From Dehalococcoidia bacterium (GTDB taxonomy: Bacteria > Chloroflexota > Dehalococcoidia > Plut-88900): a DNA stretch of 64,000 nt. The position numbers and the translations under genes are program-made. How positions within the stretch are numbered: position 1 is the first letter of the stretch; the number at the start of each line of letters is the position of its first letter. The stretch spans positions 672,001-736,000 of the forward strand of contig CBDBLV010000004.1 of NCBI GenBank assembly GCA_965207225.1, written 5' to 3'. Positions 694-62,111 of the stretch are shown here, piece by piece. The notes below the pieces were generated by a model. The model did not search any database, was not told the origin of the DNA, and was given only the letters and a program-made list of their open reading frames with translations.

Positions 694-729
694 CGCTGAT
701 CACCTTCTTGCCAATCCGGCCGGGCCGGA

Positions 730-9914: not shown

Positions 9915-9972
9915 TGGTGGGCCTAAATTGACGTTAGGCAGAACCATCTTTGAGCTTTGGATGGGGTTGTGA
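9915..9972 (+). mobile_element. att-like left junction of element A with stored LSR C-terminal tail GGPKLTLGRTIFELWMGL*
   Basis: TGGTGGGCCTA identical to 37009-37019; following arm 16/20 identical to 37020-37039. Confidence 0.8.
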
Positions 9973-10206
9973 CCGCTCGTGAGTGCTATGGATGCGATGC
10001 GTTGAGGAGGGAGGACATCGGTGCACATTGGTTTTTTGGATCACAGGGAAGAGTCTAACCGACTGATTCCGATACTGGGCACGAACTTTGGTCTATGCGA
10101 TGGGGGATCATCGGTCCGACAATCACAAAGCCCAGTTTGGCACTCAGAGACTGAGCATAGGCTTGAAGACAATATTGTTTAGATAAGTGGGAGAGAAGCG
10201 GACGAC

Positions 10207-10668
10207 TCAAGATGAGAGTTCAAATTGATCCCGTCGCCACTGCCACCATGTGAGGAAAGCGGTGACAGCGGCAAACAGGACGCCAGTCGCAATGATCGGG
10301 AGCATAAACATTAGCCAGTTATCGTTGTCTGCTCGAACAACATACCAACCCTGCGAGCGGGCGAGCACAAGCACTACCAAGCCGCCCACCGACCCTAAGA
10401 CACCGAGCCAAAGTCCTAAGATCAGACAACTGCGCACACTCGCTTTGTGAGCCACCAGCCCGGTCAGCCCTCCGGCGAAGATCGTCATCAAAGGAGGAGG
10501 CCCCAAGTACAGCAACGCTGCCAAGATGACATCCCAGATGCTAATGTCAAGATCAATTATCGGCAAGTTTCCTCCTCCTATACATTCGGAGCAGGTGCTT
10601 AATTGGAAACCGTTAGCCCTCTTACGGATCATCCATGTTATCGGAACGGATCGCAAGCCGTAGTACAA
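10207..10668 (-). CDS. Hypothetical membrane protein (start uncertain)
   Basis: Several hydrophobic segments; no recognisable motif. Confidence 0.45.
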   Translation of the reverse strand: MYYGLRSVPITWMIRKRANGFQLSTCSECIGGGNLPIIDLDISIWDVILAALLYLGPPPLMTIFAGGLTGLVAHKASVRSCLILGLWLGVLGSVGGLVVLVLARSQGWYVVRADNDNWLMFMLPIIATGVLFAAVTAFLTWWQWRRDQFELSS

Positions 10669-10804
10669 AGAGTCCTTAGTTCGAGTTGTAACCGCCGACG
10701 GTACTCGAATGGTATGTGGAACCCGCTGGGATAGGCTCCAGGGTCATTCTTTTCAGTCTTGTAGGTGCTGAATCACAGCACCTACAAGCCCCGACAGAAT
10801 GTGA

Positions 10805-10833
10805 TTGACATACATAACCGTATGGGTTATAGT
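10805..10833 (+). promoter_or_regulatory. Sigma70 promoter with operator-like inverted repeat; leaderless TA transcript
   Basis: TTGACA(10805)-17 bp-TATAGT(10828); ATAACC/GGTTAT inverted repeat within; ATG at 10840. Confidence 0.75.
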
Positions 10834-10839
10834 CGTGCA

Positions 10840-11184
10840 ATGTATCCGGTATTCTTCCACCAGCGGCCCAACGGTGCCATTCCCTATGAGGAGTACGTGC
10901 GGAACGTCTATCGGGCGGGGCAAAAGACCGAGGCGGCGAAAATCAGGGCATTCGTTGAACGCCTTGAGCAGGAAGGTTCGCAGCGTCTCGTTGGGAGGCG
11001 ATGGGCAGAAAAGATGAACGACGTATGGCAGCTTCGCGCTGGCCAGCACCGGATATTCTACTTCTGGGACTCAGAGGCCGAGCGGTACGTCATTCTAAAC
11101 GGCTTTCGAAAGAGGTCGCGTCGGACTCCACGCCCAGAGTTGGAGAGAGCAGAGAGTCTACGGGCTGAGTATCTGGGAAGATGA
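10840..11184 (+). CDS. RelE/HigB-like (Gp49-like) toxin
   Basis: 'VWQLRAGQHRIFYF...YVILNGFRKRSRRTP.PELERA'; directly upstream of an HTH gene. Confidence 0.8.
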   Translation: MYPVFFHQRPNGAIPYEEYVRNVYRAGQKTEAAKIRAFVERLEQEGSQRLVGRRWAEKMNDVWQLRAGQHRIFYFWDSEAERYVILNGFRKRSRRTPRPELERAESLRAEYLGR

Positions 11185-11194
11185 GGAGAAGATC

Positions 11195-11608
11195 ATGAGA
11201 CGGCATGAGGTTGAGGATAGCCACGCCGAGTGGCTAGAGGACATTGAGTATCGGCAGGAGTTTGGTTCGGAGACCGCCAAGCTTGAGGTCGCGGCAGCAC
11301 TTGCAGACGCACGGGAGGCCGCCGGGATGACTCAATCGGTGCTGGCGGATCGAGCAAGAGTATCCCAGGCATACATCGCAAAGCTGGAGAGGGGTGACGC
11401 AAATCCCACTATTGGCCATATCGGACGACTGTTGGCCTGCATGGGATTGAAGCCTTCCGTCACCGTCGCTCCCATGGAGCCAGCCGCTTCCTCCGAATCT
11501 GTTGATGCAGGGAGCCAGGGAGACTCCAAGTTTGGGGCAGTCTACTCCGACGACCCCCTAGCTGAAGTCGCCGGTTCTTCCGTCGAGCAACCGTCGCCAG
11601 CGGTGTGA
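11195..11608 (+). CDS. XRE HTH antitoxin
   Basis: 'AREAAGMTQSVLADRARVSQAYIAKLERGDANPT'. Confidence 0.85.
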   Translation: MRRHEVEDSHAEWLEDIEYRQEFGSETAKLEVAAALADAREAAGMTQSVLADRARVSQAYIAKLERGDANPTIGHIGRLLACMGLKPSVTVAPMEPAASSESVDAGSQGDSKFGAVYSDDPLAEVAGSSVEQPSPAV

Positions 11609-11692
11609 AATCCCGACGGGGGATGAGCAAGGGAGACTTGGAGTTGGTGATCCCGAGCCGCCCACCTTTCTGGGTTTGAGGAGAAAAGGACA

Positions 11693-13066
11693 CTGAAGAT
11701 AACAGTAATTGGGCTAGGCCGTGTCGGAACGGTTGTCGCCACAGGGCTGGCGACGGCGGGCCATAACGTGCTGGGCGTAGACATCGACCATGATCGGGTG
11801 ACCACCCTTCGTCAGGGCAGGCCTCCATTCTACGAGCCGGAGCTGGCCGAACGGATAACCTTAGCCTCACGGGACAGCGCACTCCGGTTCCTGCACAGGG
11901 ATGAAGTGAATGAGGGCTTGGGGGAGATCGCCGTCATAACCGTCGGCACTCCTCCAGGGCAGGAATCCGCTCCCGACCTACGGCAGGTCCGGGACGCCAT
12001 GTCCTGGGTCAGGTCCATGAGCCCCCGGGGCTTGGTCATCGTCATGAAAAGCACGGTGCCTCCCAGTACAGGATTGAACCTGGTGAAGGAGGAACTGTTG
12101 GGGACAAGCATCCGCTACGTGTCCAACCCAGAATTCCTCCGGGAGGGCCAGGCAATACATGACTGGGATTCTCCCGACCGCATTGTCATCGGAGTCGCTC
12201 CGAATGACGTACGGTCCACCGAGGTCGTGAGACGGATGCACGCCGGTATCGATCCTCCGTTTCTGGTCACCGATGTCACCAGTGCGGAGATGGTCAAGTA
12301 CGCCAACAATGCCTTCCTGGCCACTCGGATTTCCTTCATCAACGAGATTGCAGCCCTGTGCGACTCGTTCGGAGCCTCCATTGACGCCGTGGCCGAAGGC
12401 TTGGCGATGGATTCTAGGACCGGGAGCAAAATCCACGCCGGGGTAGGCTATGGCGGGTCATGCCTACCAAGGGACGTTCGGGCGTTGGACCTGTTGTCTT
12501 CCACTGGAGGGGTGAAAGCGGAGTTGCTCCGGGCGGTGACCAGCGTGAATGATCAGCAGAGGCTACTGCCTTTTCGTGCCCTGCAGAAGCGGTTCGACGG
12601 TCATATCGCCGGACTTAGGATCGGCGTCTTGGGACTGGCCTTCAAACCGGGCACCGAAGATGTCCGGGATGCGCCAGCACTGGAACTGATACGGTCCCTC
12701 GTCGCCGAGGACGCATCGGTAACAGTCTTTGACCCCCACGCCGGTGGACCTGCCAAAGGGCAACTTCCGCCCTCAGCGCGGCTGGTTGATGGGGCGGAGG
12801 AAGCCGCAGATGGTACACAAGCGCTGTGCCTGGTTACCGAGTGGGAGGAAATCGTGGAGGCTGATTGGCAGGCTGTGGCTCGTGGAATGGTTCCACCGCG
12901 TTTTATCTTCGACGGAAGGAACGTCCTAGACCCCCGCCAGATGCGCAGTCTGGGGTTTGAGTACGCAGGAGTGGGGAGAAACGGCGTCAGCACGGGGGAT
13001 CTCGCCGTTGGCACTGGCCAGTCCAAGAGCGACGGCGCAGGCGTCGGAGGCCAGGATGACTGCTGA
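11693..13066 (+). CDS. ugd: UDP-glucose/GDP-mannose dehydrogenase family (probable CTG start)
   Basis: Rossmann 'KITVIGLGRVG' upstream of the track start; motifs KSTVP, NPEFLREG, GYGGSCLPRD, GLAFKPG, DGRN. Confidence 0.9.
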   Translation: MKITVIGLGRVGTVVATGLATAGHNVLGVDIDHDRVTTLRQGRPPFYEPELAERITLASRDSALRFLHRDEVNEGLGEIAVITVGTPPGQESAPDLRQVRDAMSWVRSMSPRGLVIVMKSTVPPSTGLNLVKEELLGTSIRYVSNPEFLREGQAIHDWDSPDRIVIGVAPNDVRSTEVVRRMHAGIDPPFLVTDVTSAEMVKYANNAFLATRISFINEIAALCDSFGASIDAVAEGLAMDSRTGSKIHAGVGYGGSCLPRDVRALDLLSSTGGVKAELLRAVTSVNDQQRLLPFRALQKRFDGHIAGLRIGVLGLAFKPGTEDVRDAPALELIRSLVAEDASVTVFDPHAGGPAKGQLPPSARLVDGAEEAADGTQALCLVTEWEEIVEADWQAVARGMVPPRFIFDGRNVLDPRQMRSLGFEYAGVGRNGVSTGDLAVGTGQSKSDGAGVGGQDDC

Positions 13067-13997
13067 AGGGCGCGTCCTAATCACCGGTGTGGCCGGATTC
13101 GGCGGCTCCCGCCTGGCCGGAGCCTTACTGGAGCTCGGCTACAGTGTGACCGGCCTGGACATTGTGGCCCCTGGGCACGCTGACCTACTGCGTCGAGAGC
13201 TGTCCAATCCAAGGTTTCACTATCTCTGGAAGGGTATCCAGGACATCCAGGCTAAGGACATCGAGGGCCATTCGGTGGTGGTGCACCTTGCGGCCCAGCC
13301 GGACGCCCCACTCGCTTTCGAGTCGCCCCGGTACACGGTCATTCAGAACATCGAGGGCACTGTCGCCCTGCTGGAAGCGGTGCGGCAGGCAGACTGCGTA
13401 TCGAAGCTGATGTTTGCGGGGTCCGGCAACGAGATAGGGCGAGCCTTGTACCTGCCAATCGACGAAGACCATCCGTTGACTCCTCACAATCCATACGGGT
13501 TCTCGAAGGCAGCGGCCGAGATGGCATTGGGGGCATGGCGCCTCGCCTATGAAATCCCGTCAATGGTCATGGGCACAGGCGTCGTGATCGGCCCCAACAT
13601 GCGCAGAGAGGTATTCGTATTCAAGTGGCTGTGGACCGCGCTGCATGGCAAGCCCATAGTGGTCGAGGGCGGTAAGCAGACTCGCGATGTGGCATTCATC
13701 GATGACGTAGTTAGGGCTTGGACACTCGCAATTCAGGCTCCCGTTGAAGAGGTCGTGGGGCAGAAGTTCCTCGTAGGCTCTGGTCAGGAACACTCTATCG
13801 ACGACCTCGCAAGATTCTGCCGGGATAGCGCAGGGAATGACGTCCCAATCGAGTACGTGGGTTACCGTCCTGGAGAAGAAGGACACAGAGAGGCGTTCAG
13901 CGTGGAGAAGGCCCAGAGGGTGCTAGGCTACACTCCCCAGGTCTCACCCAGAGAAGCTATCGGACTAACCGCCGAGTGGGTGCGAACGCTGCTCTAG
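13056..13997 (+). CDS. NAD-dependent epimerase/dehydratase (extended SDR)
   Basis: 'VLITGVAGFGG', 'VVHLAA', YGFSK (YxxxK), 'QTRD'. Confidence 0.9.
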   Translation: MTAEGRVLITGVAGFGGSRLAGALLELGYSVTGLDIVAPGHADLLRRELSNPRFHYLWKGIQDIQAKDIEGHSVVVHLAAQPDAPLAFESPRYTVIQNIEGTVALLEAVRQADCVSKLMFAGSGNEIGRALYLPIDEDHPLTPHNPYGFSKAAAEMALGAWRLAYEIPSMVMGTGVVIGPNMRREVFVFKWLWTALHGKPIVVEGGKQTRDVAFIDDVVRAWTLAIQAPVEEVVGQKFLVGSGQEHSIDDLARFCRDSAGNDVPIEYVGYRPGEEGHREAFSVEKAQRVLGYTPQVSPREAIGLTAEWVRTLL

Positions 13998-14636
13998 CCC
14001 TTTCCAAATGAAGTGGAGTCGTTCCCCGCATCGCCATAGCAGCAGCCCATCCAGATAGTCCGGCCAACCGATCTCGTCTACCGGCAACCTGTAAAGGTGT
14101 GCGACTAGAACTGCCAATATGGCGTCGTGGGTCACGTAGATGTTCAGGCGTCCACAAGCCTGAAGGTCGGTGGTCGTTAGCCGCAGTAGCAGGTCGATAC
14201 CCTCAGCAGTTGGCCTCATGCCGACGGGAGGATTGGCACGGGTGAGTTGGCGCCTCACTATCTCCAATATGCCGATTTCCAGAAAGAGCGCTCCGCTAAC
14301 TTCCGAATCCACGACGAAGGGACCGGGGTCTCCTAGCCGCCAATCTGGGACAATCTCTTCGGGCAACGCACCACCACGCAAGATCGCCTGCGCCGTCGAT
14401 TTACATCTGGGCACGGGGCTGGTGATGACCCTTGTACAGTGCCTTATGTGGGACAGCGCAGCTCCAAGTCTTTCCGCCGAGGCGACTCCATAGGCGGTCA
14501 GGGGCACGTCCACTCCGAATGTCCCTGGAGGAATGTCCTCGCGCTCTGCGTGTCTCAGAACGAGTGCGGCGTCAGCTTCAGCCGGTATGCTCCCAAGCTG
14601 TTCTTTGATCCACGACGCTCCGTCAGTGTCGGTCAT
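13965..14636 (-). CDS. Histidine phosphatase superfamily protein
   Basis: 'LRHAER', 'TSPVPRCKSTA', 'VTHD'. Confidence 0.85.
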   Translation of the reverse strand: MTDTDGASWIKEQLGSIPAEADAALVLRHAEREDIPPGTFGVDVPLTAYGVASAERLGAALSHIRHCTRVITSPVPRCKSTAQAILRGGALPEEIVPDWRLGDPGPFVVDSEVSGALFLEIGILEIVRRQLTRANPPVGMRPTAEGIDLLLRLTTTDLQACGRLNIYVTHDAILAVLVAHLYRLPVDEIGWPDYLDGLLLWRCGERLHFIWKGLEQRSHPLGG

Positions 14637-17400: not shown

Positions 17401-17404
17401 TGTC

Positions 17405-18706: not shown

Positions 18707-18731
18707 CGAAACACCCTACCTTTGCCGACAT

Positions 18732-19238
18732 CTACTGGAGAAGCCTCTCCGGTTCTACTAGCAGCTCAGAGACGCGTCTCCCCAAGGCTCCTGCGATGGC
18801 TTCGAGGGTACGGAACCGGGGCGACTGCTCTCCCTTTTCCACCCGCACCAGCGTCACCCGCCCGATGTCCGCAGCACGAGCGAGGGCCTCCTGCGTCATG
18901 CCGGCAGACTCCCTCATATCCCGGATGCGTGCTCCAAGAGTCTGCCTGCCCTGAATCGCTATCGCCTCGATTGCCGGTCGATAGAATGCGTCGCAGTAGT
19001 GGCGAGCGAAATCCCAGGGAATCTCCACCTGCTCTCCGCTGTCGGTCTCCACCATCATCTCGTAAGGGTTCGGCAATTCGAGGCTGGACACGGCCCCGCG
19101 TTCCTTGATCTCAGGAACGTCTGCGTAGGGTATGAGGCCCTTGGACCCATCAGCGAAGTTGAGCTCGATGCCGTCCTCCAGCAGGCTGGCGGCCGTCATC
19201 ATCCGACTGGCGTTTCTGACCAGGACTGCTTCCATCAT
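18732..19238 (-). CDS. Antitoxin-like protein: DUF2442-like N-terminus plus XRE HTH
   Basis: C-terminal 'RESAGMTQEALARAADIGRVTLVRVEKGEQSP'; follows a DUF4160-like gene. Confidence 0.7.
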   Translation of the reverse strand: MMEAVLVRNASRMMTAASLLEDGIELNFADGSKGLIPYADVPEIKERGAVSSLELPNPYEMMVETDSGEQVEIPWDFARHYCDAFYRPAIEAIAIQGRQTLGARIRDMRESAGMTQEALARAADIGRVTLVRVEKGEQSPRFRTLEAIAGALGRRVSELLVEPERLLQ

Positions 19239-19241
19239 CGC

Positions 19242-19478: not shown

Positions 19479-19596
19479 TCCTTCCGCTCATCGATGCATT
19501 GTCGGGAGCCTTTGTCGCACTGGAATAGTATCATACAACGACACAACGGGGCAATACATACTGCGTTGGGCTGAGTCGGAGGAGAGGTCCGATTCT

Positions 19597-22621: not shown

Positions 22622-24490
22622 TTGGCAGCCACGGATTCACGAGCAGCAGAACTGAACGGCGCAGCGCAGGCCGGAGCGGACCTCGACGAGGCGGTCCGGG
22701 ACTACGTGCGCACCTACGCCGTGCTGCATGGGAAGCCGAAGGCGGCCGAGGCTCTCGGCGTCTCCCGCCACACCCTGTGGCGCTTCCTCGACCGGGGCCA
22801 CGCGGGACGCGCCATACCCCGCGCGGTGCTGGAGCAAGTGGGCGACAGACCAGAGGCGCTGGAGGACGCCGAGGAGCGGCTGATACTCCAGGCGCAAACC
22901 AGGCGGCGGCTGAAGGACGGCGGCCCGTCGACCGGTTCCAAGCGCCTGTCCGAGGCCCTGGAGGACGCCCTCCGGCTGGTCTGCGCAACGCCCCTGGCCA
23001 CCGTGGACGAGCTGTCCCGCTTCGGACGTGTTCCCGCCTCCACTATGAGAGAACGCATTGACAAGCTCGCCAGGCGGGGCCTGGTGGACTCCGTGTCGCA
23101 CCAACTGAGCGTTCTCGGCTCCCGCCCCCAACGACGCTACTTCCCCACGAAGCAGGGCATCGTCGCCGGAGGAAGGATCGAGCACGGCACGGACTACTTC
23201 CTCAGCGAGTACCCGGTGTCCAGACAGTGGTTCCGGCTGCTGGCCGAGCGCATGGACGCCGTGGCCGTCCTCTACCGCCTCGCCACCATGATCGCCGACG
23301 CAGACCCGCACCATAAGCCCGTGCGCGTGGACCACTACCGCAGCGGCCCCTACGACATGCTGATCACTCTGTCGGGTGGCCGCTCCATCGGCATCATCCG
23401 CCAGGGTCAGACCCTACCCACCTCCAACCTGCGCTACCGCCTCAGGAGCGTCGAGCATCTCCCCAGCCGGGAGAAACCTTTCGCCACCCTGGTGCTGACA
23501 CACGCCGACCAGGCCACCCGCAGGGCGATACGCTCATTGGGCGACCCCTCGGAACACCGTAGGACCTTCGCGGCGACGGAGGGGGAGCTTCTGGCCGTTG
23601 CCCACACCGGCGCCGTCTGGCAGCAGTGCGGAGACGGACGGGACAATGACCCGCCCGTGCCTATCGACCCCGGCGCGGCTCTTAGGGGCATCCTGGCGTG
23701 GATGGATCGGCTGCTGGACTCGTCCCATTCGTCCTTCCGCGACAACCCGAGGCCCGATCTCGAAGACCTCTACTCTTCCCGTGTGAAGGCCGCCATGCCG
23801 GAGCCTGCCCAGCAGATCACGTCATCCCCATCGGCGCAACTCACTCGCGCCGGGAAGGACGCCCTGGACCTGCTGTCCGCCTGGCCCCTGTGCACCCGTG
23901 AGCAGCTCGCGGGGCTGATGGGCGGCGTCACCCTGCGTCGGGTCAACCAGGTGCTCCGCTCACTCCGTGAGCACGGCCTCGTGCGGGAGGACGGCTCCCT
24001 GCTCGTTCTCACCGACGAGGGGCTGACACACCTGGCTCGCCGGGACCGGGCCGCCGTCGGCCTCACCCTCGACCGCTGGAGCCCAGAACTCACCCTCAGG
24101 AAGCCCTCCGTCTACGTCGGGACAGCCCTGCGCGCCCTGGCCACCCAGCTGCGCCACCACGCCGGCGTCGTCGGCTTCGCGGCCTCCCTCTCAGCCGAGG
24201 TAGCTAAGTCCCCGGACTACGACCTGTTCGACCTGCTGCCCACCCACCGTTCCAGCATCGGCTACCGCTACGACCAGACCACCTACGCCATTCACCCCGA
24301 CGCATCCTTCACCCTGGAGTACAAAGGCGATTGGCGTCCCTTCCTGCTGGAGTTCGAGCGGAGGGCCACCACGCCGAAGCGCATCCCCAAACGCCTGAGG
24401 TCCTACCGACGTTATTTCACCAGCGGCTGGGCGAAACGAGATCATGAGGGACACCTGCCCAACGTGCTCTTCATCTTCGAGTCCCCCGAC
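22622..24490 (+). pseudogene. Replication-relaxation (Replic_Relax/MOBC-like) protein truncated by IS21
   Basis: Similar to 58644-60305 ('ERMDA...YR','LARRDR','PDA...F.LE.ERRA..P'); reading frame meets the IS end after 'FESPD'. Confidence 0.75.
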
Positions 24491-24585
24491 TGTCGTTACC
24501 CAAGATCTTTGAGCCAGGTTACCCACGAACATTGAGCCACCCTGAACGCCGATGATACGGATTATGACAGGATGCTATCGGCGGT

Positions 24586-25380
24586 TCAATCACCTCCCTT
24601 CTTGCCGAGGATTTTGGCCACCTTTCCCAGTAGGGCGCGGTGAGGAGAGAGCCTCTCCCGGTAGCTGGTGCCCTCGATGACGATCTGGTAGCTGGTGTTG
24701 GCCAGACGGTCCAGGGCGCTGTTGCCCAGGATGGGATCGTTGAAGAGGCTGAGCCACTCTTCGATGGCGCGGTTGGAGGTGATGACGAAGCTGGAGGCCC
24801 GGTGCTTGCCGACGATGAGTTGGTAGAGGTCCGATGACTGTTGTGCGTTAAGACGGTGCAGGCCCAGGTCGTCGAGGATGAGCAGGTCGGGGGAGAGGAA
24901 GGAGCGGAAGGCTTTGTCCACCGAGTTGTCCACCCTGGCTTGGGACATGGCTTTGAAGAAGTCGTATGCGTGGATGAAGCGGACGGAGTATCCGGCTCTG
25001 ACGGCGGCGTAGCCGAGGGCCTGGGCCAGGAAGCTCTTGCCGACGCCCGCCGGTCCCATGAGCAGGACGTGCTCGTGCCTGGGGATGAAGTCCAGGGAGA
25101 AGGCGGCGTCAAGGAGGCGGCGGTCCAGGGTGATTTCGGACGTCCAGTCGAAGTCCTCCAGGCGGCAGGTCTCCTCGAAGCCGGCCCGGTTCAGGCGGGT
25201 CTCGATGCGCCGGTTCTCCCTGCGGCTGACCTCGTCGGCCAGGATGATCTCCAGGAAGGCGGCATAGTCCAACTGGTCCCTTCGGGCCAGGGCGATGCGC
25301 TCGGGCAGGGTGTCCAGCATGCCGCTGAGCTTGAGGGTCTTGAGCAGCGGGGCCAGATCGACGTTGCGGTTGCGGGTCAT
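24586..25380 (-). CDS. istB: IS21 helper ATPase
   Basis: GPAGVGKS, LLILDDLG, ITSNR, ALDRL. Confidence 0.95.
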   Translation of the reverse strand: MTRNRNVDLAPLLKTLKLSGMLDTLPERIALARRDQLDYAAFLEIILADEVSRRENRRIETRLNRAGFEETCRLEDFDWTSEITLDRRLLDAAFSLDFIPRHEHVLLMGPAGVGKSFLAQALGYAAVRAGYSVRFIHAYDFFKAMSQARVDNSVDKAFRSFLSPDLLILDDLGLHRLNAQQSSDLYQLIVGKHRASSFVITSNRAIEEWLSLFNDPILGNSALDRLANTSYQIVIEGTSYRERLSPHRALLGKVAKILGKKGGD

Positions 25381-26957
25381 AGCGTAACTCCTTCGGTTGG
25401 GTGATGGCCGTTGACCAGGGCGAAGACGGAGCCGGGCCTGGCAAAGCGCCCCGGCGGTATGAGGTCGGCAAGGGGCGGCGCATCCTGCTGCTCCAGGGCT
25501 TCAACCAGGATGCGCTCGACGCGGTGCACGTCGATGAGGTCCACGTCCAAGGCCTTGCGGCAGGCGTCGTTCAGCCTGTCGGGGGTGTAGCGCTGGGCGA
25601 GGCGGAGCAGCTTGTGTCCCTGCCGCACCTTGGCCCAAGGCGTGGGGCCTTCGAAGAGCCGGTCGGCGAAGGCGGCCACCGCCTCTCCCAGCTCCGCCGC
25701 GCTCTGCTTGATCTTGTCGGGCCCTCGCAGGGTGTAGGCGATGAACTCCTTTGGGTAGTCGTCGGGGTCGGTGGAGCGTTTGCCCCTGGGCTGACGGGGA
25801 TGGACCTTGATCAGCTTGCCCCGGTGGTAGATGCGCACCAGCTTGCTGTCCAGCGCGATCTCCACCTGCTGCCCCGGAGGGCACAGGGCCGACGGCACCG
25901 AGTAGAGGGCGTGCTGGCAGGTCACGTGGTGGTCGCGCTGCACCTTGGCGTTGCGCCAGCGGGTAACCTCGTAGGGATCGCCGTCCCAGGGCAGCAACGT
26001 CTGGCGCTCCTCTGTGTCGAAGACCTCCACGGGCTTGCGCCTGGTGGTGCCGTGCACCCGCTGTCCGGCCACCTCACGGCACCAGTGGAGCGCTTCCTTC
26101 CGCATGTGAGGCAGGTCCCTGAAGGAGGCTCCCTTGAAGAAGCGCTCTCTCACGTACTGGACTCCCCGCTCCACCTTGGGCTTATCCCTGGGGTGGCGCA
26201 CCCGGGCCGGGTCGGTGATGAAACCCCGGCGCTGCGAGTACTCCAGGAAGCCCCTGGTCAGCCTGGGATGCAGGGCGTCGGCCCCGGCCACCGCCGCCGG
26301 GAAGTTGTCGATGACCAGGTACTTGGGTATGCCGTCGAAGAAAGCCCAGGCCGCCTCCAGTCCGGCGACCACGTCCTCCAGCTTCTGCCCGTGGGTGGGC
26401 CAGACGAAGCTGTGCCGCGAGTAGGCCAGCACCACGATCAGCGCCCACACCGTCCGGCGGCGTCCCGTCTCCGGGTCCTCCAGCGGCCCCAGCCGACCGA
26501 AGTCCAGCTCCGCCACCTCGCCCGGAGGACTCTCCTCCATCCGCACCGTCCGAAGACTGCGGCCTCGCCAGTTGCGGCGGGCCACGAAGCGCTGGAGGGA
26601 CGAATAGGGCACATCGCAGCCCCGCTCCAAGAGCAACTCCCGGATGCGGGTCAGTTGCAGCCGGTCCCCGATGAGCCACTGCTGAATCTGGTCGGCCCAG
26701 GGGGACAGCCTCTCCTCTATGGGCATCTTGGTCTGCCGCGGTCCCGCACGGCCGATGGCCGCCAGCTTGCTCAGTTGCTCCTCGCTGGGACCCGGTCCGT
26801 CCCGGGACAGCCCCAACCTCTCCGCTGAGGAGATGTATTTGACCACCGTGTTCCGGGACAGGCCCGTCCCAGTCGCTATGTGGCGCTGGCTCTCTCCAGC
26901 CTGCCAGCGCCGGATGACTTCTTCTATCTCCACTCTGAGTACCTCCTTGTAGGCCAT
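25377..26957 (-). CDS. istA: IS21 transposase
   Basis: N-terminal HTH, 'PPGEVAELDFG','IDN','P.DKPKVER'. Confidence 0.95.
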   Translation of the reverse strand: MAYKEVLRVEIEEVIRRWQAGESQRHIATGTGLSRNTVVKYISSAERLGLSRDGPGPSEEQLSKLAAIGRAGPRQTKMPIEERLSPWADQIQQWLIGDRLQLTRIRELLLERGCDVPYSSLQRFVARRNWRGRSLRTVRMEESPPGEVAELDFGRLGPLEDPETGRRRTVWALIVVLAYSRHSFVWPTHGQKLEDVVAGLEAAWAFFDGIPKYLVIDNFPAAVAGADALHPRLTRGFLEYSQRRGFITDPARVRHPRDKPKVERGVQYVRERFFKGASFRDLPHMRKEALHWCREVAGQRVHGTTRRKPVEVFDTEERQTLLPWDGDPYEVTRWRNAKVQRDHHVTCQHALYSVPSALCPPGQQVEIALDSKLVRIYHRGKLIKVHPRQPRGKRSTDPDDYPKEFIAYTLRGPDKIKQSAAELGEAVAAFADRLFEGPTPWAKVRQGHKLLRLAQRYTPDRLNDACRKALDVDLIDVHRVERILVEALEQQDAPPLADLIPPGRFARPGSVFALVNGHHPTEGVTL

Positions 26958-27080
26958 CGCGGCACCTCCTTATCAAGTGCTGCAATGGTCTAAGCTGGGG
27001 CGCTCAGGGTGGCTCAAAGACCCTGGTTATCTGGCTCAATGTTAGTGGGTATTGTGGCTCAATGTTCCTGGGTATTGACA

Positions 27081-27134
27081 GACGAACGGCATCCGGCTCA
27101 GGGCGTCGAGCAACTGGTGGTCGGAGAGGGCCAT
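27081..27134 (-). pseudogene. 18-codon N-terminal stub of another relaxase-like gene, cut by IS21
   Basis: MALSDHQLLDALSRMPFV versus 'LEAHLLRTLADMPYL' at the start of 58644. Confidence 0.5.
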
Positions 27135-30224: not shown

Positions 30225-30272
30225 TATCCCATCCCTCCTACTAAACTGATTTGCAATGAATCTGCTCATGGT

Positions 30273-30440
30273 TTAATACGAAACGCTTGAAACTTGTGGG
30301 AGGCTGTCGTCTTCATTGACATACGCAAGGAATTCTATGATCACCAGCAACAGCAAAACAGGAGACATGAGTAACGAGAGCCACCAAGCGGAACGGCCGG
30401 TGTCATGTAAGCGCCTTGCGGTGACTGCCAGATGTGGCAC
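30273..30440 (-). pseudogene. DUF805 membrane protein fragment
   Basis: 'LAVTARRLHDTGRSAWW'. Confidence 0.6.
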
Positions 30441-30759
30441 TCCCCTGCTCCGACACCACGCACTCGTTGATGGCCCGGTATGCCCACGGGTCCACGCCAA
30501 AAGCGACCAGCAGGTCAGAGCGAGGCTAGGGCACCGCGCCCGCGCCTTATCGAACTCTGGCCTGACCACAATTCCAGCAGTCCCGCCTCTACCAGGGTAA
30601 GTCTCCGGCTTACTAAAATGCACAGCCAGTGCCAGGGAATTTCCGTACTTGAACAAGGTTTGCCATACTGGGTCATCTCGTCAGGCTAGTGCTGTAGCGG
30701 GTCCGGCAGCCGGAAACGTGCCTGGACTTCGGGATGTTGCTGGTCGTTTGGGCAGTGGT

Positions 30760-30900
30760 CATACTGAAGGTCGTCCACCCCTTCTCCGCCAATTGGGGTC
30801 AACAGCATCAGCGAGGTGACCGTCCGTCCAGCCCTGGTCCACTCTTTGACCTTCACGTGGCGTCTGATCGACTCGCCCAGCCCGACTCCCTCAAGCATCT
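30760..30900 (-). pseudogene. Possible IS1380-like transposase remnant
   Basis: 'GLGESIRRHVKVK...SLMLL..GGEGVDDL', recalled resemblance only. Confidence 0.35.
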
Positions 30901-30975
30901 CCGCTCCTCCCGGTCTGGGAGTCTGTGGAACCTGATCAGTACTGGCAAGTCGCCTCAGAACCTGTCTCCGCCCCT

Positions 30976-33702
30976 TCAATCAAGATGCGTTATGACCCAG
31001 TCCACACCCTGCTTCTCGGCGGTGATAGAGCCAAGGTCCACCTCACTGCGCGATTGGTAAACGGATCCAGAAATCCAGCCGAATTCCACGTTCGTGCCGA
31101 TGAGTGTGATCGTGCCGGGTGATCGGCCAAATACCCACGCCTCGCCCATTACCAAGCCAGAGCCGTCAGACAGGTGGGCCGCCAAGAACCGCACAGTGTT
31201 CGGCGGCCTTATCGAATCTGCATCGGGATCAATGCAGAAACCGTCTCGCGGCAGAACTAGGCCCACTCGGCACTTCGCAATCCTCCCCTCTTCAAACATG
31301 GATAACCTGGTTGAGAGGCTGGCTCTGTTGAATTCGGTTATCGAGACTGGCTCCTGTACGGGAGTCACGGGAGTAGGCCTAGTGGTGGCCACGGGTTCGC
31401 CCACGGCGTTCATCACGTAGATCTCATAGTCCCCGTCGCGGTTGGAGTGGAACACGATGCGCTGGCCGTCGGGCGACCAGGCGGGCGACCAATCGGCAGC
31501 GTCGTTGTCGGTGAGGCGCGTGACCCCGGAGCCGTCGGCGTTCATCACGTAGATCTCATAGTCCCCGTCGCGGTCGGAGTCTAACGCGATGCGCTGGCCG
31601 TCGGGCGACCAAGCGGGGCGACCATCGCCAGCGTCGTTGTCGGTGAGGCGCGTGACCCCGGAGCCGTCGGCGTTCATCACGTAGATCTCAAAGTCCCCGT
31701 CGCGGTCGGAGTTGAACACGATGCGCTGGCCGTCGGGCGACCAGTCGGGGGACCCATCGATACCGTCGTCGTTGGTGAGGCGCGTGACCCCGGAGCCGTC
31801 GGCGTTCATCACGTAGATCTCATAGTCCCCGTCGCGGTCGGAGTTGAACGCGATGCGCTGGCCGTCGGGCGACCAGGCGGGCGACCAATCGTCGGCGTCG
31901 TCGTTGGTGAGGCGTGTGACCCCGGAGCCGTCGGCGTTCATCACGTAGATCTCATAGTCCCCGTCGCGGCCGGAGTCGAACGCGATGCGCTGGCCGTCGG
32001 GCGACCAGGCGGCGAAACCATCGGGAGCGTCGTGATCGGTGAGGCGCGTGACCCCGGAGCCGTCGGCGTTCATCACGTAGATCTCATAGTCCCCGTCGCG
32101 GCCGGAGTCGAACGCGATGCGCTGGCCGTCGGGCGACCAGGCGGGCGACCAATCGATACCGTCGTCGTCGGTGAGGCGCGTGGCTGGCGAAGGCGTGGCT
32201 GGTGTAGGCGTAGGTTCTGGCGTGAGTGTAGCAGTAGGCTCCGGCGAGGGCGTGTCGGTCGCCACCGGCGTGGGTGTGGCTGGTGTAGGCGTAGCGGTAG
32301 GCTCTGTTCTACGGACAGCCCCGCCGGTAACTCTTCCGTTCACAATGCGGCAACCTGCCGGATCTATGCAGGTGTAGACGGCGTCATAAGTCCAGCCGTA
32401 CCCTCCATTGTCCATCAGAATTACAAAGCCGCCGGAACCGGATTGGGCCTGGGCTCCTCCCCCAAATCTTCGCCAATCTGAAAACTCAGCGGGAGAGTTT
32501 GGGAGCGTCTCTCCCGCCTCGAACACATTGTCTGGGGTAGGCGTGGGTGTAGCAGTAGGCTCTGGTGTGGGCCTTAGGGAACGCTGTGCAGATTGTCGGG
32601 ACTCATAGAAGGTCCAACTCCCTTCAGCGTTGGCGGTGGCTACGATTTCGCTCTGGAAGGCATCGTCGACTTCGAAGCCGTCAGAGTAGCAGAGACGAAG
32701 GTTGTCCACATTGAGGGTGATGCCCCCTACCACTTGCTTCGCCGGGCCTCCCTCACGACAGATTGCTCCGTCGTGCGTCACTGACAGAACGACGCTGGCG
32801 CGTGGCGTGCCGCCACCGGTGTAGCTGCAACCTTCGCCAGGCTGCAACGTCATGCCGTCCCGGCATATCCCCAAGACTACAGGCGCGAGTTCCGGCGTGA
32901 GTGTAGCAGTAGGCTCCGGCGAGGGCGTGTCGGTCACCACCGGCGTGGGTGTGGCTGGTGTAGGCGTAGCGGTAGGCTCTGTTCTACGGACAGCCCCGCC
33001 GGTAACTCTTCCGTTCACAATGCGGCAACCTGCCGGATCTATGCAGGTGTAGACGGCGTCATAAGTCCAGCCGTACCCTCCATTGTCCATCAGAATTACA
33101 AAGCCGCCGGAACCGGATTGGGCCTGGGCTCCTCCCCCAAATCTTCGCCAATCTGAAAACTCAGCGGGAGAGTTTGGGAGCGTCTCCCCCGCCTCGAACA
33201 CATTGTCTGGTGTAGGCGTGGGTGTAGCGGTAGGCTCCGGCGAGGGCGTGGCTGGTGCAGGCGTGGGTTCCACGGCAGGTGTGGCGGTGCGTATCGGGGT
33301 GAGTGTCGACGCAGCGGAACGCCCCGACGTCGATGTCGGCATGGCGGTACTCGTTGGTGGGACCGACGTGAACACGGGCGCGGTCGTCGGTGCGGCAATG
33401 TTCGCGACCGTAGGCGTCGCGCCTGATGTCGCCGATTCCCGTGTGGACGTGGGGTTGGTAGTTGTGTCGTCACTACAAGCGGACGTGGAGAGGGCCACCA
33501 GCACAACCAGCAGCGCCACCGCAAACGGAAGGAACTCTCTCAGCCCCGTCCTTTCATAATGGCGGCGGGGTTCAGAGGGGAAACGGCCTCCCCGACGGTC
33601 GCTCTCTAGCGAGGAGAGAGGTCGGGTATGCTTAGGACGCCTGTTCGGGGGGGGGGGGGTATAAGTATACGTTCGCACATCTAGGCCACTACCTTCGGTC
33701 AT
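30976..33702 (-). CDS. Lipoprotein with TolB-like PD40 beta-propeller and duplicated domains
   Basis: Lipobox 'STSAC'; six 44-aa repeats 'PAWSPDGQRIAF.S.RDGDYEIYVMNADGSGVTRLT'. Confidence 0.9.
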   Translation of the reverse strand: MTEGSGLDVRTYTYTPPPPNRRPKHTRPLSSLESDRRGGRFPSEPRRHYERTGLREFLPFAVALLVVLVALSTSACSDDTTTNPTSTRESATSGATPTVANIAAPTTAPVFTSVPPTSTAMPTSTSGRSAASTLTPIRTATPAVEPTPAPATPSPEPTATPTPTPDNVFEAGETLPNSPAEFSDWRRFGGGAQAQSGSGGFVILMDNGGYGWTYDAVYTCIDPAGCRIVNGRVTGGAVRRTEPTATPTPATPTPVVTDTPSPEPTATLTPELAPVVLGICRDGMTLQPGEGCSYTGGGTPRASVVLSVTHDGAICREGGPAKQVVGGITLNVDNLRLCYSDGFEVDDAFQSEIVATANAEGSWTFYESRQSAQRSLRPTPEPTATPTPTPDNVFEAGETLPNSPAEFSDWRRFGGGAQAQSGSGGFVILMDNGGYGWTYDAVYTCIDPAGCRIVNGRVTGGAVRRTEPTATPTPATPTPVATDTPSPEPTATLTPEPTPTPATPSPATRLTDDDGIDWSPAWSPDGQRIAFDSGRDGDYEIYVMNADGSGVTRLTDHDAPDGFAAWSPDGQRIAFDSGRDGDYEIYVMNADGSGVTRLTNDDADDWSPAWSPDGQRIAFNSDRDGDYEIYVMNADGSGVTRLTNDDGIDGSPDWSPDGQRIVFNSDRDGDFEIYVMNADGSGVTRLTDNDAGDGRPAWSPDGQRIALDSDRDGDYEIYVMNADGSGVTRLTDNDAADWSPAWSPDGQRIVFHSNRDGDYEIYVMNAVGEPVATTRPTPVTPVQEPVSITEFNRASLSTRLSMFEEGRIAKCRVGLVLPRDGFCIDPDADSIRPPNTVRFLAAHLSDGSGLVMGEAWVFGRSPGTITLIGTNVEFGWISGSVYQSRSEVDLGSITAEKQGVDWVITHLD
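33647..33659. repeat. G13 homopolymer (C13 on coding strand) in the 5' end of the PD40 lipoprotein gene
   Basis: Counted directly; encodes T-P-P-P-P. Confidence 0.9.
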
Positions 33703-33751
33703 GACGGTCTCTGCCTCCTGCTATCCGATTTCGAGATTCAATGCTGAACTG

Positions 33752-34471
33752 CTACGTCCCCCGTTGGCGGAGCCTTTCTTCCAACTCCCGGACACGGGCT
33801 TCGGCGCTGTCGGCGCGGGCCTCGGCGCTGTCGGCGCGGGCTCGTTCGCTCTCAAGGCTGGCGATGGGCTCCCCCGTGACAGGGTCGTAGAACATCAGCC
33901 TCCCATCATCCCAACGCAGATACAGGTTCAGCACCGCGCTGTACCCCTGGAGGCTCCCTCCGGGCAACTCCTCTAGCTCTACAGGGACATACGCACCGTC
34001 CACCAGCCGGTCTCCGCCCAGCTTCGCCCCGTGATACGCTCCCGTCTCATCGAATCGCCAGTACTCCGGTATGCTCAGAGCGGTGTAGTCCGCGCGCTTC
34101 TCGGTCACGTCCACTCGCCCCGTGCTTTTGGACGCCACCTCCAGCACGAAGTCCGGCGGCTTCCCCTGCTCCGCGATCACGTAGGCTTCGCTGCGCCGGT
34201 ACGCCCCCGGGTCAACCCCGAAGGCCACCAGCAGGTCGGGATACCGCACCCCGGCCAGGCTCCCCGTGGGCGCCAGCGCCAAGTAGCGCTCACCGGCCAC
34301 CAGCGTCGTCTCTGGGCTGCCCAGATGCACTACCAGGTTGTGGACAATACCGGTGTAGGTCAGACCGTCAAAGCTGGTCATCTTGTCGTCCGGATCTTCC
34401 GGAGGGTCCGGAAACACAAAATGCTCCCGAACCGGCGGCGTCCTGGCAAATGTCGTGTCCGGCGTCGTCAT
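33752..34471 (-). CDS. Uma2/DUF820 family PD-(D/E)xK nuclease-like protein
   Basis: 'PDLLVAFGV','PPDFVLEVASKST..D...K..Y....IPEYWRFD', coiled-coil tail. Confidence 0.9.
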   Translation of the reverse strand: MTTPDTTFARTPPVREHFVFPDPPEDPDDKMTSFDGLTYTGIVHNLVVHLGSPETTLVAGERYLALAPTGSLAGVRYPDLLVAFGVDPGAYRRSEAYVIAEQGKPPDFVLEVASKSTGRVDVTEKRADYTALSIPEYWRFDETGAYHGAKLGGDRLVDGAYVPVELEELPGGSLQGYSAVLNLYLRWDDGRLMFYDPVTGEPIASLESERARADSAEARADSAEARVRELEERLRQRGT

Positions 34472-34684
34472 AGCTCACCTAAACAGTCGGCTCGAAGCCT
34501 GCGCCAACCCCGCCCACTCATCGGCAGGCCAACGGAAAGGCGTCTCCACTCCGAAGCACCTCCAACAAGGTGTTACTCTACGAGTCATACTATACACCGC
34601 CGGGCCAGACCTTGGAACCCCCCGAAAACGAGCACCGCTGAAGCTGAAGTGCGCCTTGCGAATGGACATTTCGCGCCAAGGGCA

Positions 34685-35096
34685 CTATCGGCTGCGGGCG
34701 TTGACGACACGCGTGCGCACGATCTTGTCCCAGAGGCATTGGCGGTCGGCGTCCCAGACGCACCAAAGCGCCGCAACGACGAAGGTAGGCGTGAAGATGG
34801 CCCCGCCCGCCTGCTCTCCCAGCACAGCCACCAATACCCCATTGACCGCGCCGAAAACGATGCATCGCACGACCAGGTCCCTGATCAGCATCCAACCTAG
34901 GTCGGCCGATTGACCATCCCCACGGATGACGCGCGTACGCAGGAGCTGCTTCGGCGGGATCTGTCCGCCTCGCGCCGCGATCAGGTACCATATGCCCCAG
35001 CCGATGCCGAGCGTAAGCACGAATAGAAAGCAGTCGGAGGACGAATCCGGCGAGACGGCGGCCTTGGCTGGCAAGCTCCATGTCGCTGCTGCTCAT
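34685..35096 (-). pseudogene. RDD family membrane protein, frameshifted near 35036
   Basis: 'LASQGRRLAGFVL' in one frame joins 'DCFLF...GQIPPKQLL..RV...RQCLWDKIVRTRVV' in another. Confidence 0.75.
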
Positions 35097-35105
35097 CCCC
35101 TCCTC

Positions 35106-35162
35106 TTACACCTCCAGCTTGAAGGACAAGCGGAAGGTTCTTGATTTTATCAAGTCTGGTAG
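35106..35162 (-). mobile_element. att-like junction of element B with stored LSR tail PDLIKSRTFRLSFKLEV*
   Basis: 35137-35160 is 23/24 identical to 36989-37012. Confidence 0.8.
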
Positions 35163-35340
35163 ACATGGTGGCGGCCAGGCGATATATGGAGGCCACGGCG
35201 TCCATCCTGCGTATGAGCAGCGTCAGTCACTCCCTGTACATGGGGTAGGCCCGCACGAAGTCCGAGGGCGTGTCGAAGCGGAGGACCCACGCGGCTTCGT
35301 CGATGCCCTGGGCCGTCAGGTGGTACTTCTGGCTGGCCGG
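35161..35340 (-). pseudogene. Internal fragment of a relaxase-like gene with internal stop
   Basis: 'YHLTAQGI...RAYPMYRE*LTLLIRRMDAVASIYRLA' aligns with 22622 and 58644 proteins. Confidence 0.75.
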
Positions 35341-35576
35341 CCAGTCAGCATCGGAAAGATGACGAGGGCCATTCCGTCGGAGAGCGTCAAAGTGACGCTC
35401 TTGCCGTAGCGGGACACGTTCGTGAAAGAGCGGTCCTCAATGTCCCCGGCCACGTCAATCTCGGATAGCGTCCGAAATACCGTTGGGCGGACGACGCGGG
35501 CAGAGACCACGGAAGCGCCCACCGCGCGGCGCTCCAGCACCTCGCGGACAATGGTGAGTTCCGGCGCCTCTGGCAC
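35341..35576 (-). pseudogene. Fpg/Nei DNA glycosylase N-terminal fragment
   Basis: 'MPEAPEL','V.RYGK','MLTG'; no H2TH or Zn-finger part. Confidence 0.75.
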
Positions 35577-35606
35577 GGGTTTCGTCCAGCCTGGTTTCTT
35601 ACATGG

Positions 35607-36611
35607 CTACGAACGTATTTGAAAACGGGGCACCCGACCAATACCCAACCAACATCTCAGTCTCTCTGCAATCTCAAGCCCGCCCACCATTCCGGCCGCC
35701 GGTAATGCAACCTCAATCATGAAGCTGAGCGGTGCCGAGAGCACATTCTCCGTGGAACCGCCTTGGTTCCCGAGTACTCCCAAGTTGATGAATATCCATA
35801 GCAACGCGAAGCCGGCAATGAACACGCAGAATATCAGCACTATCTCGATGGCGTACTTTAAGACCGGCAAATGTAATGAAGCCCATGATGCCCCCGTCAC
35901 TGCCAACCAAACTACGATTAGTGTCCAGAAGCGCCAATCCTCACTTTCGTCCAGGGCATCCACGGCAAGCACCAGCACGATGGCCGTGGATATGAATAGA
36001 AACGTGCCGACGAGAGTGCGCTTCCAATTCGACACTACCCAGGGAATCACCCAACGTACAAAGCCAGCGAGAGAGAGTAGTACTACCCATTCGTACACCG
36101 GCTCAGACGTGTCGGCATCGTCGACGTAGAATGCCCATAGCAGGAGAGCTAACCCGGCAAACACCAATCCGCCCCCTGCGACATCGAGCGCAGTTTTCTT
36201 CCAAGAGCTCTCGCGCGTTGCCTCTGGAGGGTCTTCTTTAGATGAGACGAACGATATGCCAGATATGACGAATAGTGCGCCCAAGATCAGGATCACTCCA
36301 GCGGTCCACCAGCGATACACATCGTCGCCAGGCTCCGGCGCAAGTACGAAGGGAACCCATAGCGCCCATGCGACGAAGAGGGCCCCAAGCGCAGTCGCGA
36401 CAAAGACCAACCCGTGGAATAGTCGGGGGTGAATCCTTGATTCAGGTGGCTCTACAGCTACAGAGGCAAGTATCGGCAGCACGGCGAGACCAGGCAGCGC
36501 CCACCAGAAGACCCACCGGGTTACTCCTTCGCCGATATCGACATCTTGCACGTAGTGTCCCCACAGGATAAAGCCAAAGCCTATGATCAGATAGAGGATC
36601 AGGAGCACCAA
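35607..36611 (-). CDS. Polytopic membrane protein, unknown function
   Basis: About 10 hydrophobic segments. Confidence 0.7.
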   Translation of the reverse strand: MVLLILYLIIGFGFILWGHYVQDVDIGEGVTRWVFWWALPGLAVLPILASVAVEPPESRIHPRLFHGLVFVATALGALFVAWALWVPFVLAPEPGDDVYRWWTAGVILILGALFVISGISFVSSKEDPPEATRESSWKKTALDVAGGGLVFAGLALLLWAFYVDDADTSEPVYEWVVLLSLAGFVRWVIPWVVSNWKRTLVGTFLFISTAIVLVLAVDALDESEDWRFWTLIVVWLAVTGASWASLHLPVLKYAIEIVLIFCVFIAGFALLWIFINLGVLGNQGGSTENVLSAPLSFMIEVALPAAGMVGGLEIAERLRCWLGIGRVPRFQIRS

Positions 36612-36957
36612 GCCTGCCTTCTTCAGTCTGTCTCGCGTCAGTTGCGCATCTCCTCACACCTTCCGAACGCGGTTCGACAGTACAGAGTGTAACGTCATGG
36701 CGTGGCTGGCCCCATCGGTAATTCGGTTGGCCTGGGCTCGAGGGTTCGATAGGTTCCCGCGTTCGTGGAAATGACGAGCGGTTCCGTCTCCCGGCTACGC
36801 TCCTGGGCGGCCGCTGCTTTGTCAGTATCTGGTTGGGACACGTCTGCTCCTTTCCCGGGGCACTCTACCTTCAGTCAGGGAGCTCACACCACCTCAAATC
36901 TCTCGGGTTTTCCTATCCCCTCGGGTGTCCCATTATCGCTGACGGTCTACAGATTGG

Positions 36958-37069
36958 CTACAGGTCCAGAACGAGGGTAAGTGTGAAAGTTCTTGATTTT
37001 GTCAAGTCTGGTGGGCCTATTTTGACGGTAGACAGAACCGTCTTCGAATTGAGGCTGGGCAGTCTGTAA
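36958..37069. mobile_element. attL of element C: hybrid site with a stored LSR tail on each strand
   Basis: + strand 37010-37069 GGPILTVDRTVFELRLGSL*; - strand 37011-36958 PDLTKSRTFTLTLVLDL*; core TGGTGG 37009-37014. Confidence 0.9.
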
Positions 37070-62067: not shown

Positions 62068-62111
62068 TAGTGGCCCACGGGAACGACAGGAAACAGGAGG
62101 AGGACTCACAG

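Follow-up and report, generated by a model that had tools for sequence, protein, structure and literature searches.

Conserved peptide tails beside attachment half-sites in a Dehalococcoidia genome are very probably the detached 3' ends of large serine recombinase genes

We analysed a 64,000-nt stretch of the genome of a Dehalococcoidia bacterium (assembly GCA_965207225.1, contig CBDBLV010000004.1, here C4, positions 672,001-736,000; hereafter the window), in which short repeated arms stand beside short peptide-coding tails and two convergent large serine recombinase (LSR) genes. The genome (G000) comprises 4.03 Mb in five contigs at ~61% GC. Tails were sorted into an A family (F-x-L-x-F-x-L-[DE]-[LV]-stop) and a B family ([VI]FE[LM]W[LM]G..stop), and recombinases by their C-terminal end into an a-type (VLDFV[KQ]S..PP) and a b-type (VLSTVK.GG). 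The window features that bear on the arms, tails and recombinases, in window coordinates, are these:

9918-9945, forward strand: core TGGG plus a B-type arm, a putative attP-type half-site at the left end of element E1 (centre 9919/9920); an exact pattern match and the arm of a tail end, C4 681919
9946-9972, forward strand: B-tail codons IFELWMGL and a stop by translation, read inward into E1
9920-35161: E1, element-like and 25 kb long, bounded on the left by a B-tail arm and on the right by an A-tail arm
35106-35135, reverse strand: A-tail codons FRLSFKLEV and a stop
35136-35159, forward strand: A-type arm, an orphan half-site, fused at 35160 with internal sequence of a truncated gene
35162-37013: remnant, apparently the tail end of an a-type element without a recombinase end
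36958-36987, reverse strand: A-tail codons FTLTLVLDL and a stop
36988-37039, forward strand: complete site by pattern matches, with A arm (24 nt), TGGG and B arm (24 nt), at the junction of the a-type remnant and E2
37040-37069, forward strand: B-tail codons VFELRLGSL and a stop, probably the cognate 3' end detached from the LSR gene at 62070-63693
37014-63693: E2, 26.7 kb long and resembling a conjugative element, which has a B-tail arm at the left end and LSR-1 at the right end, defined by homology limits, Pfam matches and pairing
62070-63693, forward strand: LSR-1, b-type, the body up to the crossover (...NGSVLSTVKNGG)
63614-64000, reverse strand: LSR-2, a-type, the 3' part (...SASVLDFVKSSPPFLTVDRTEPF...), from the tblastn hit C4 737296->735626
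63668-63719, forward strand: complete site with the arm order swapped, common to the overlapping 3' ends of the two convergent LSR genes, at the junction of E2 and E3
63694 onward: E3, the next, a-type element, starting with LSR-2

The A arm, GGTTCTTGATTTTGTCAAGTCTGG, matched three times in the window and the B arm, TGGGCCTAWWTTGACGKTAGRCAGAACC, twice, against 0.00 expected for each in shuffled sequence. A full site measures 52 bp (24 + TGGG + 24), with GGTTCT-N7-GTCAA-N4-GG as the common arm form, and overall is an imperfect inverted repeat with a short asymmetric centre, as expected of LSR sites. Genuine arms numbered 57 in the genome, spread over all five contigs. An earlier note on this DNA had described four orphan arms in the window. 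The repeats are real, but the stretches 36958-37011 and 37010-37069 are halves of the one site at 36988-37039, and 37012-37069 is no orphan, being the left end of the 26.7-kb element that carries the LSR gene at 62070-63693. A third site, complete and lying inside two convergent LSR genes at 63668-63719, had been missed. Its position led us to drop the idea that the arms are terminal inverted repeats of an insertion sequence (IS) or a miniature inverted-repeat transposable element. Fixed left and right polarity classes of arms were also dropped, B-type arms having been found on both sides of the core, and a GC-defined island was rejected: the GC profile fails to mark the elements because the stretches of 70% GC are repeat-protein genes.

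The open reading frame (ORF) at 62070-63998, which includes LSR-1, matched PF00239 Resolvase (3.6e-34), PF07508 Recombinase (1.1e-20) and PF13408 Zn_ribbon_recom (1e-11), and the site at 63668-63719 falls within its LSR-1 3' end, reading ...NGSVLSTVKNGGLDLTKSRT... LSR-2 is 54% identical to LSR-1 and converges on it, the two genes overlapping on the same 52 bp. The tail-tail site at 36988-37039 is likewise open throughout on both strands. In the full site one strand encodes VLDFVKSGGPILTVDRT and the other VLSTVKIGPPDLTKSRT; because both strands read open through the site, the arm is recombinase coding sequence. In the integrated state, the LSR-1 frame runs on without a stop for 124 codons counted from where its arm begins, antisense to LSR-2 (window 63720-64000; C4 735720-736043), and the same 124-codon b-type frame, antisense to an a-type LSR, recurred in all seven convergent pairs. 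Databases correspondingly list 643-aa LSR forms, and this extension may be due to chance in a GC-rich antisense frame or may represent a real long isoform. The family has ~34 matches in G000, and among plasmid-borne LSRs (PLSDB) the best identity to LSR-1 was 31%.

Homology between element copies breaks inside the GGTGG core, at the centre of the site. For example, C4 725035-735694 matches C4 903396-892737 with 100% identity over 10.66 kb, ending in the site core, and copies of the sequence that starts at window 37009 lie from C5 2003423 onward (97.7% identity), on C3 (96.8%) and from C5 379132 onward (100%). Each integrated element carries the body of an LSR gene at one end and an arm, 8-10 codons and a stop at the other. 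When we parsed the genome by assigning each arm to the element on its outer side, the next inward-facing arm from 11 of the 13 a-type LSR ends was an A-tail arm 11-51.5 kb away with nothing between, and from 8 of the 15 b-type ends it was a B-tail arm 9-29 kb away; no cross-type pair of LSR and tail occurred within 60 kb. The same layout was found in a genome of another genus (G011), where a b-type LSR at 1832184-1833809 lies ~16.5 kb from a B-tail arm at 1848683. Elements also form tandem arrays at tRNA genes, one of them at C5 1911997-1990338 beside tRNA-Met. This array and that at C3 11518-106888 consist of five or six elements, in which the a-type alternates with the b/c-type. In such arrays, a convergent LSR pair is the point where a b-type element meets an a-type one, and at a tail-tail site such as 36988-37039 an a-type element meets a b-type one.

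Four peptides reported earlier from the window, each ending in a stop, are exact translations: GGPKLTLGRTIFELWMGL at 9916-9972 (forward strand), GGPILTVDRTVFELRLGSL at 37010-37069 (forward), PDLTKSRTFTLTLVLDL at 37011-36958 (reverse) and PDLIKSRTFRLSFKLEV at 35159-35106 (reverse). To these had been attached the proposals that an alternating hydrophobic pattern and a similar length persist beyond the arm and that selection acts on the peptide even though it is untranslated in the integrated state, with random stop positions and residue patterns in a larger set of arms as the contrary outcome. The arm patterns were used to collect tails across 12 family genomes (G000 and 11 relatives), the B pattern matching 29 times in G000 and 0-4 times per genome in the relatives, and both proposals held up. 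The first stop after the A arm fell at codon 10 in 27 of 34 instances and in 26 of 33 distinct DNAs (one of the 33 being the antisense of an LSR gene that the filter missed), against a background of 1.8%; after the B arm it fell at codon 9-10 in 14 of 22 distinct DNAs, against 3.65%. The hydrophobic fraction at A-tail positions 1-9 was 1.0, 0.04, 1.0, 0.16, 1.0, 0.36, 0.96, 0 and 0.96, so that the odd positions are 96-100% hydrophobic. Ratios of nonsynonymous to synonymous polymorphism (pN/pS), computed on minimum spanning trees of the distinct tail DNAs and approximate, were lowest in the tail frame, as frame-specific conservation downstream of the arm would have it: 0.25 for B-tails pre-filtered by xFE and 0.36 for A-tails pre-filtered by a stop at codon 10, against 0.44-4.9 in the other five frames. 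Without these filters the values were 0.43 (B) and 0.53 (A), against 0.70-2.04 in the other two forward frames. All of these measures agree in direction, and the tails thus appear to be kept by purifying selection on the peptide.

These comparisons also bear on the possibility that conservation acts on the DNA, with the sequence kept as an extended site, as a terminator or as the target of an accessory or directionality protein, and the open frame being incidental. The tail region directly adjoins the recombinase binding site, LSR elements need directionality factors, and reverse frame 0 also gave a pN/pS of ~0.5. Yet the same peptides are written by DNAs that differ at 6-9 of 27-30 positions: VFELWLGGL and its stop by three DNAs (L015, L051 and L052) with 6-8 differing sites, and IFELWMGL at window 9946 and at C3 67908 with nine nucleotide differences and different stop codons. 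Second codon positions hold the fewest changes, 4 out of 54 among the B-tails and 33 out of 161 among the A-tails; the stop keeps one codon position in most of the distinct A DNAs while being TAG, TAA or TGA, and the hydrophobic residues alternate strictly as the even positions vary freely. Furthermore, serine integrases are described in Rutherford 2013 (PMC3783163) as needing no auxiliary DNA sequences. We consider conservation at the DNA level improbable on this evidence.

Even less probable is that the tails are dead remnants, either decaying 3' fragments of recombinase genes or old insertion scars, that look alike through recent copying. Three of the four tails in the window do lack their recombinase gene, one genome copy carries a premature stop (IFEL-stop-MGL-stop, C5 145217) and several copies in G000 are identical. 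Standing against decay, diverged tail DNAs that still keep the peptide patterns are found in no fewer than five genomes from three genera; in 19 elements the tail faces an intact LSR from a position that is fixed and specific to the type; and dozens of database LSRs from other assemblies end in such tails.

Whole recombinases that carry the tails were found in G000 itself. An intact 545-aa LSR at C5 379072-380709 ends in ...RDGGPILTVDRTVFELRLGSL and a stop, with a tail identical to that of window 37010-37069 that is supplied by the end of the neighbouring element; a second C5 LSR ends in ...GGPELTIGRTIFELWMGDPTSLRRS and a b-like LSR fragment on C2 in ...SGPPDLIKSRTFRLALVLDL, each followed by a stop. 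Among the best 120 database homologues for each of three LSR queries, sorted by a rough script, the C termini were distributed as follows:

c-type query: B-tail 43; tRNA-antisense tail 35; read-through into a convergent LSR 19; other 22; no arm 1
a-type query: B-tail 23; read-through into a convergent LSR 60; A-like (KSRTF...) 4; other 31; no arm 2
b-type query: B-tail 3; tRNA-antisense tail 24; read-through into a convergent LSR 22; other 54; no arm 17

The B-tailed homologues of the c-type query measure 544-547 aa. By eye, many of the "other" entries of the a-type query are further read-through variants, and by reading, 14 of the "other" entries of the b-type query carry a third tail, ..LRTFRWEV.. 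and a stop, which is also present in G000. The earlier note had proposed that the tails are an interchangeable set, each a fold-completing strand or a degron; on such a view they could be added to any gene that the element enters or is read from. Tails do swap, in that the same LSR types occur with B-tails, tRNA-antisense tails, ..LRTFRWEVLI and a stop, or read-through, and every tail family ends in hydrophobic residues. However, LSR genes were the only ORFs found reading into arms, the pairing is cognate by LSR type, and the targets are tRNA genes, not protein genes. A general set of exchangeable tails is the least probable of the alternatives that we weighed, and we set it aside in favour of each tail being the 3' end cut from the LSR gene that lies across the element from it, as indicated by the type-specific pairing and by full-length LSR ORFs that end in exactly these tails.

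The tRNA targets were apparent from seven LSR 3' ends that abut tRNA 3' ends (Ile, Ala, Lys, Val, Met, Val and Gln). The tRNA 3' end, ...GGCCCACCA, is complementary to the core TGGTGGGCC. In all five tRNA junctions examined (5/5), the start of the T-loop GTTC is 19 bp away from the centre, against 25 bp in the arms, a 6-bp shift. For the Listeria integrase, the motif of the zinc-ribbon domain is reported to lie 5 bp nearer the centre in attB than in attP (Rutherford 2013, PMC3783163). By analogy, the arms may be attP-type half-sites and the tRNA ends attB-type half-sites, with GTTC as the putative zinc-ribbon-domain motif. This arrangement suggests that one recombinase family could use many tRNA genes, with the universal T-loop GGTTC serving as the outer motif of the bacterial half-site. 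At C3 106863-106890, a B-tail arm adjoins tRNA-like sequence, apparently a T-arm and acceptor end in sense orientation (GGTTCGAGTCC...GGTGGGCC), whose 3' end, without CCA, the arm would supply.

Taken together, these findings make it very probable that the arms are half-sites within the 3' ends of LSR genes, that the tails are the last codons of those genes, detached to the far end of the element, and, as part of this one reading, that the family consists of integrative, partly conjugative elements moved by LSRs. The model is as follows. The 52-bp site, made of two 26-bp half-sites, lies inside the last ~26 codons of the LSR gene with the crossover in TGGTG|GGCC, and because the site lies within the gene, integration would cut it. 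The body (~541 codons) would stay at one end of the element, reading outward into foreign DNA, and the last 17-19 codons (the arm, an amphipathic tail of 8-10 residues and the stop) would come to lie at the other end, facing inward and untranslated. Circularisation, or a suitable tandem neighbour, would rejoin body and tail in frame. Under this model, window 37012-37069 would be the detached tail of the LSR gene at 62070-63693 in E2, and 9918-9972, 35106-35159 and 36958-37011 would be the tail ends of decayed elements without their LSR genes. In a circle of E2, ...GTCAAAAATGGTGG would run on into GCCTATTTTGACGG..., and the resulting ORF would finish with ...GGPILTVDRTVFELRLGSL and a stop. The frame agrees: (63693-62070+1) mod 3 = 1, and in the tail frame base 37014 occupies codon position 2. 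Since a body remainder of 1 meets codon position 2, the junction would be in frame, for a protein of 545 aa from the ATG at 62112.

Several points weigh against this model. No circular junction or empty site was present in the contigs. Contigs of four public runs (X8-X11), compared with a 13-kb locus that holds a 9-kb element (L091), likewise gave neither a back-joining nor a skipping joint; as these were contigs and not reads, they provide no evidence against excision, and two loose contig ends at the L091 sites translate as further A-tail variants. A cognate tail was not resolved for 2 of the 13 a-type and 7 of the 15 b-type LSR ends, which had no partner on the contig, another LSR between or a distance above 60 kb; these cases are due to contig ends, arms outside the pattern or rearrangements. 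The pN/pS values are weaker without filters, reverse frame 0 is lowish as well, and the copies are related by descent, with stop counts and spanning-tree pN/pS approximate and the sets small. The A-tail is rarely LSR-attached in databases (4 of the 120 a-type matches), so the link for the two A-tails of the window rests mainly on the pairing in G000. An AlphaFold2 model of the 545-aa tail-bearing LSR, from a 45-sequence alignment, had a mean predicted local distance difference test score (pLDDT) of 58 with the tail below 50, and so gave no confident tail structure; in this model of a paralogue, long helices occupy residues 361-448, where the zinc-ribbon domain of an LSR would have its coiled-coil insert. 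Finally, the two flanks of E1 are contiguous in no paralogue, so that a simple insertion is at most one possible history of E1.

The other features of the window are as follows:

1-9919: flank with giant repeat-protein genes
24487-27084 (~24491-27080): IS21-family copy between 53-nt inverted repeats, within E1
24586-25380, reverse strand: IstB ATPase
25377-26957, reverse strand: IstA-like transposase
37184-37890: PIN/AF2212-like pair of toxin-antitoxin type, just inside the left end of E2
within E2: a Calx-beta giant protein
53806-56100: VirB4/TraC-like ATPase (TraG P-loop/TraC_F_IV), by Pfam
56116-58647: coupling-protein-like ATPase (TrwB_AAD_bind/TraG-D_C), by Pfam
58644-60305: Replic_Relax protein, by Pfam
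61400-61693: HigB-like toxin upstream of LSR-1

E2, a candidate for conjugative transfer, has between its attachment sites the gene set that defines an integrative and conjugative element (a type IV secretion ATPase, a coupling protein and a relaxase-type protein), with Pfam matches that are weak to moderate. Tblastn found no LSR gene in E1 (9920-35161) and no LSR in the remnant (35162-37013). The half-site at 9918-9945 has no partner arm to its left, and the core of E1 (19.8-24.5 kb) is ~91% identical by BLAST to b/c-type elements elsewhere. Eleven paralogous copies of the gene cut at 35160 continue through that junction, and the left flank of the remnant has 11 of its 12 paralogues inside a-type elements.

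In the flank, two huge ORFs (1747 and 1253 aa) occupy window 730-9731 on the reverse strand at ~70% GC with 327-bp tandem repeats, the 1253-aa ORF having no Pfam match; this repeat-protein region, up to window 9867, is 99.7% identical to C4 813713-812843. A Gp49-like/HTH pair of toxin-antitoxin type lies at 10765-11608, just inside the left end of E1. Five further copies of the IS21 element occur in the genome at ~99% identity, and three of the five lie within a-type elements. A PD40 beta-propeller gene at 30976-33702 (reverse strand) contains 132-bp tandem repeats and a pair of 300-nt direct repeats 675 bp apart that are 98% identical, with repeats at window 31267-32226 and 32206-33180. LSR paralogues that start at about residue 150, without the catalytic domain, recur in three genomes (G000 C2 150888-152123; G010 C1 1802195-1803379 and 1904336-1905499; G011 C1 1855385-1856584 and 357516-358652). 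The two copies checked (G000 C2 and G011 1856584) end in an A-tail, and these proteins could be DNA-binding-only regulators or decoys.

The closest parallel is found in the DsiB islands of Dehalococcoides, which we liken to the present elements by description. According to McMurdie 2011 (PMC3146451), in every case the 3' end of dsiB overlaps attL and the gene meets no stop within the island, DsiB is suggested to be perhaps fully functional only on the circle or beside an island with "the requisite 3' gene fragment," and its C-terminal parts are divergent, with no conserved tail or 3' fragment identified there. From that description the two systems share an LSR of ~540 residues at the edge of tandem islands, encoded by a gene that overlaps attL and has its stop outside. 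They differ in that the described target is the tmRNA gene ssrA, in contrast to the many different tRNA genes here; none of the seven LSR/tRNA junctions found was a tmRNA junction. A small serine recombinase, DsiA, is described beside DsiB, whereas no second resolvase lies upstream of LSR-1 (in E2, the element looked at), where the ORFs encode the HigB-like toxin or have a weak HTH_23 match or no Pfam match. Also, in the present elements the 3' fragment is identified, falls into families, bears the marks of purifying selection and is paired with LSR type. The small genomes of the same class contained no LSR match at E<=1e-30.

Genes split by their own integration are also described for the "suicidal" tyrosine integrases of SSV type, which are restored on excision and form a compact module of att and integrase, and a 2021 review gives self-disrupting recombinases as exclusively archaeal (PMC8371274). 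As there, the attachment site lies within the recombinase's own gene, which integration splits. The SSV-type enzymes, as described, are archaeal tyrosine recombinases from which the catalytic part is split off, unlike the present case, in which only the last 17-19 codons would be. Serine recombinase domains were the only ones met, and no tyrosine recombinase fold (Phage_integr_3) was found in our analysis; one database LSR homologue is labelled Dehalococcoidia bacterium, that is, bacterial. In work on mycobacteriophage BPs, the removed part of the repressor is reportedly an ssrA-like degradation tag. The attP of BPs and its relatives lies inside the repressor gene, and integration alters the C terminus and so marks the integrated state, as set out for integration-dependent immunity in PMC4557955. 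There the gene affected, by that account, is a repressor and the enzyme a tyrosine integrase; here the gene is that of the recombinase itself. For phage-type large serine integrases, tRNA targets are unusual, and we know of no report of attP within the integrase reading frame. Those of Listeria A118/LI, Bxb1 and phiC31 resemble the present LSRs in their domain set, in their imperfect inverted-repeat sites of ~50 bp and in an outer motif about half a helical turn nearer the centre in attB half-sites, as described in Rutherford 2013 (PMC3783163). What is new in our results is the cognate tail modules, the tail families, the selection on them and the type-specific pairing.

Selection that maintains the tail as a peptide implies that the whole protein is produced in one state or another. 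An enzyme with its cognate tail would be made from the circle or with the tail of a neighbour, and would be the form that integrates into a tRNA gene, while the integrated copy would make an LSR with a foreign tail (tRNA antisense, neighbouring sequence or a long read-through). Body and tail are split according to state, so the element would encode different recombinase isoforms in its two states, and this change of isoform would mark the element's own state. We tentatively consider, as a possibility that we judge more likely false than true, that the tail acts as a state switch of a "semi-suicidal" serine integrase, with only the circle encoding the fully active or stable integrating form and the tail-swapped enzyme of the integrated copy being altered in activity, stability or directionality.

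For annotation, gene callers give such LSRs arbitrary C termini, for example the 643-aa read-through forms, and overlook the tail ends, which locate the boundaries of elements with single-base precision. The question raised since 2011, whether LSR genes that span their site have a real 3' end, finds a very probable answer in the sequence, with that 3' end lying across the element from the gene body. A tail that governs activity or stability, if it does so, would amount to a small topology sensor provided by nature, of interest to genome engineering with serine integrases. If the state switch is true, the element would sense its own topology without a separate regulator and would offer engineers a natural tail-dependent on/off handle, and self-splitting integrase genes would extend to bacterial serine recombinases.

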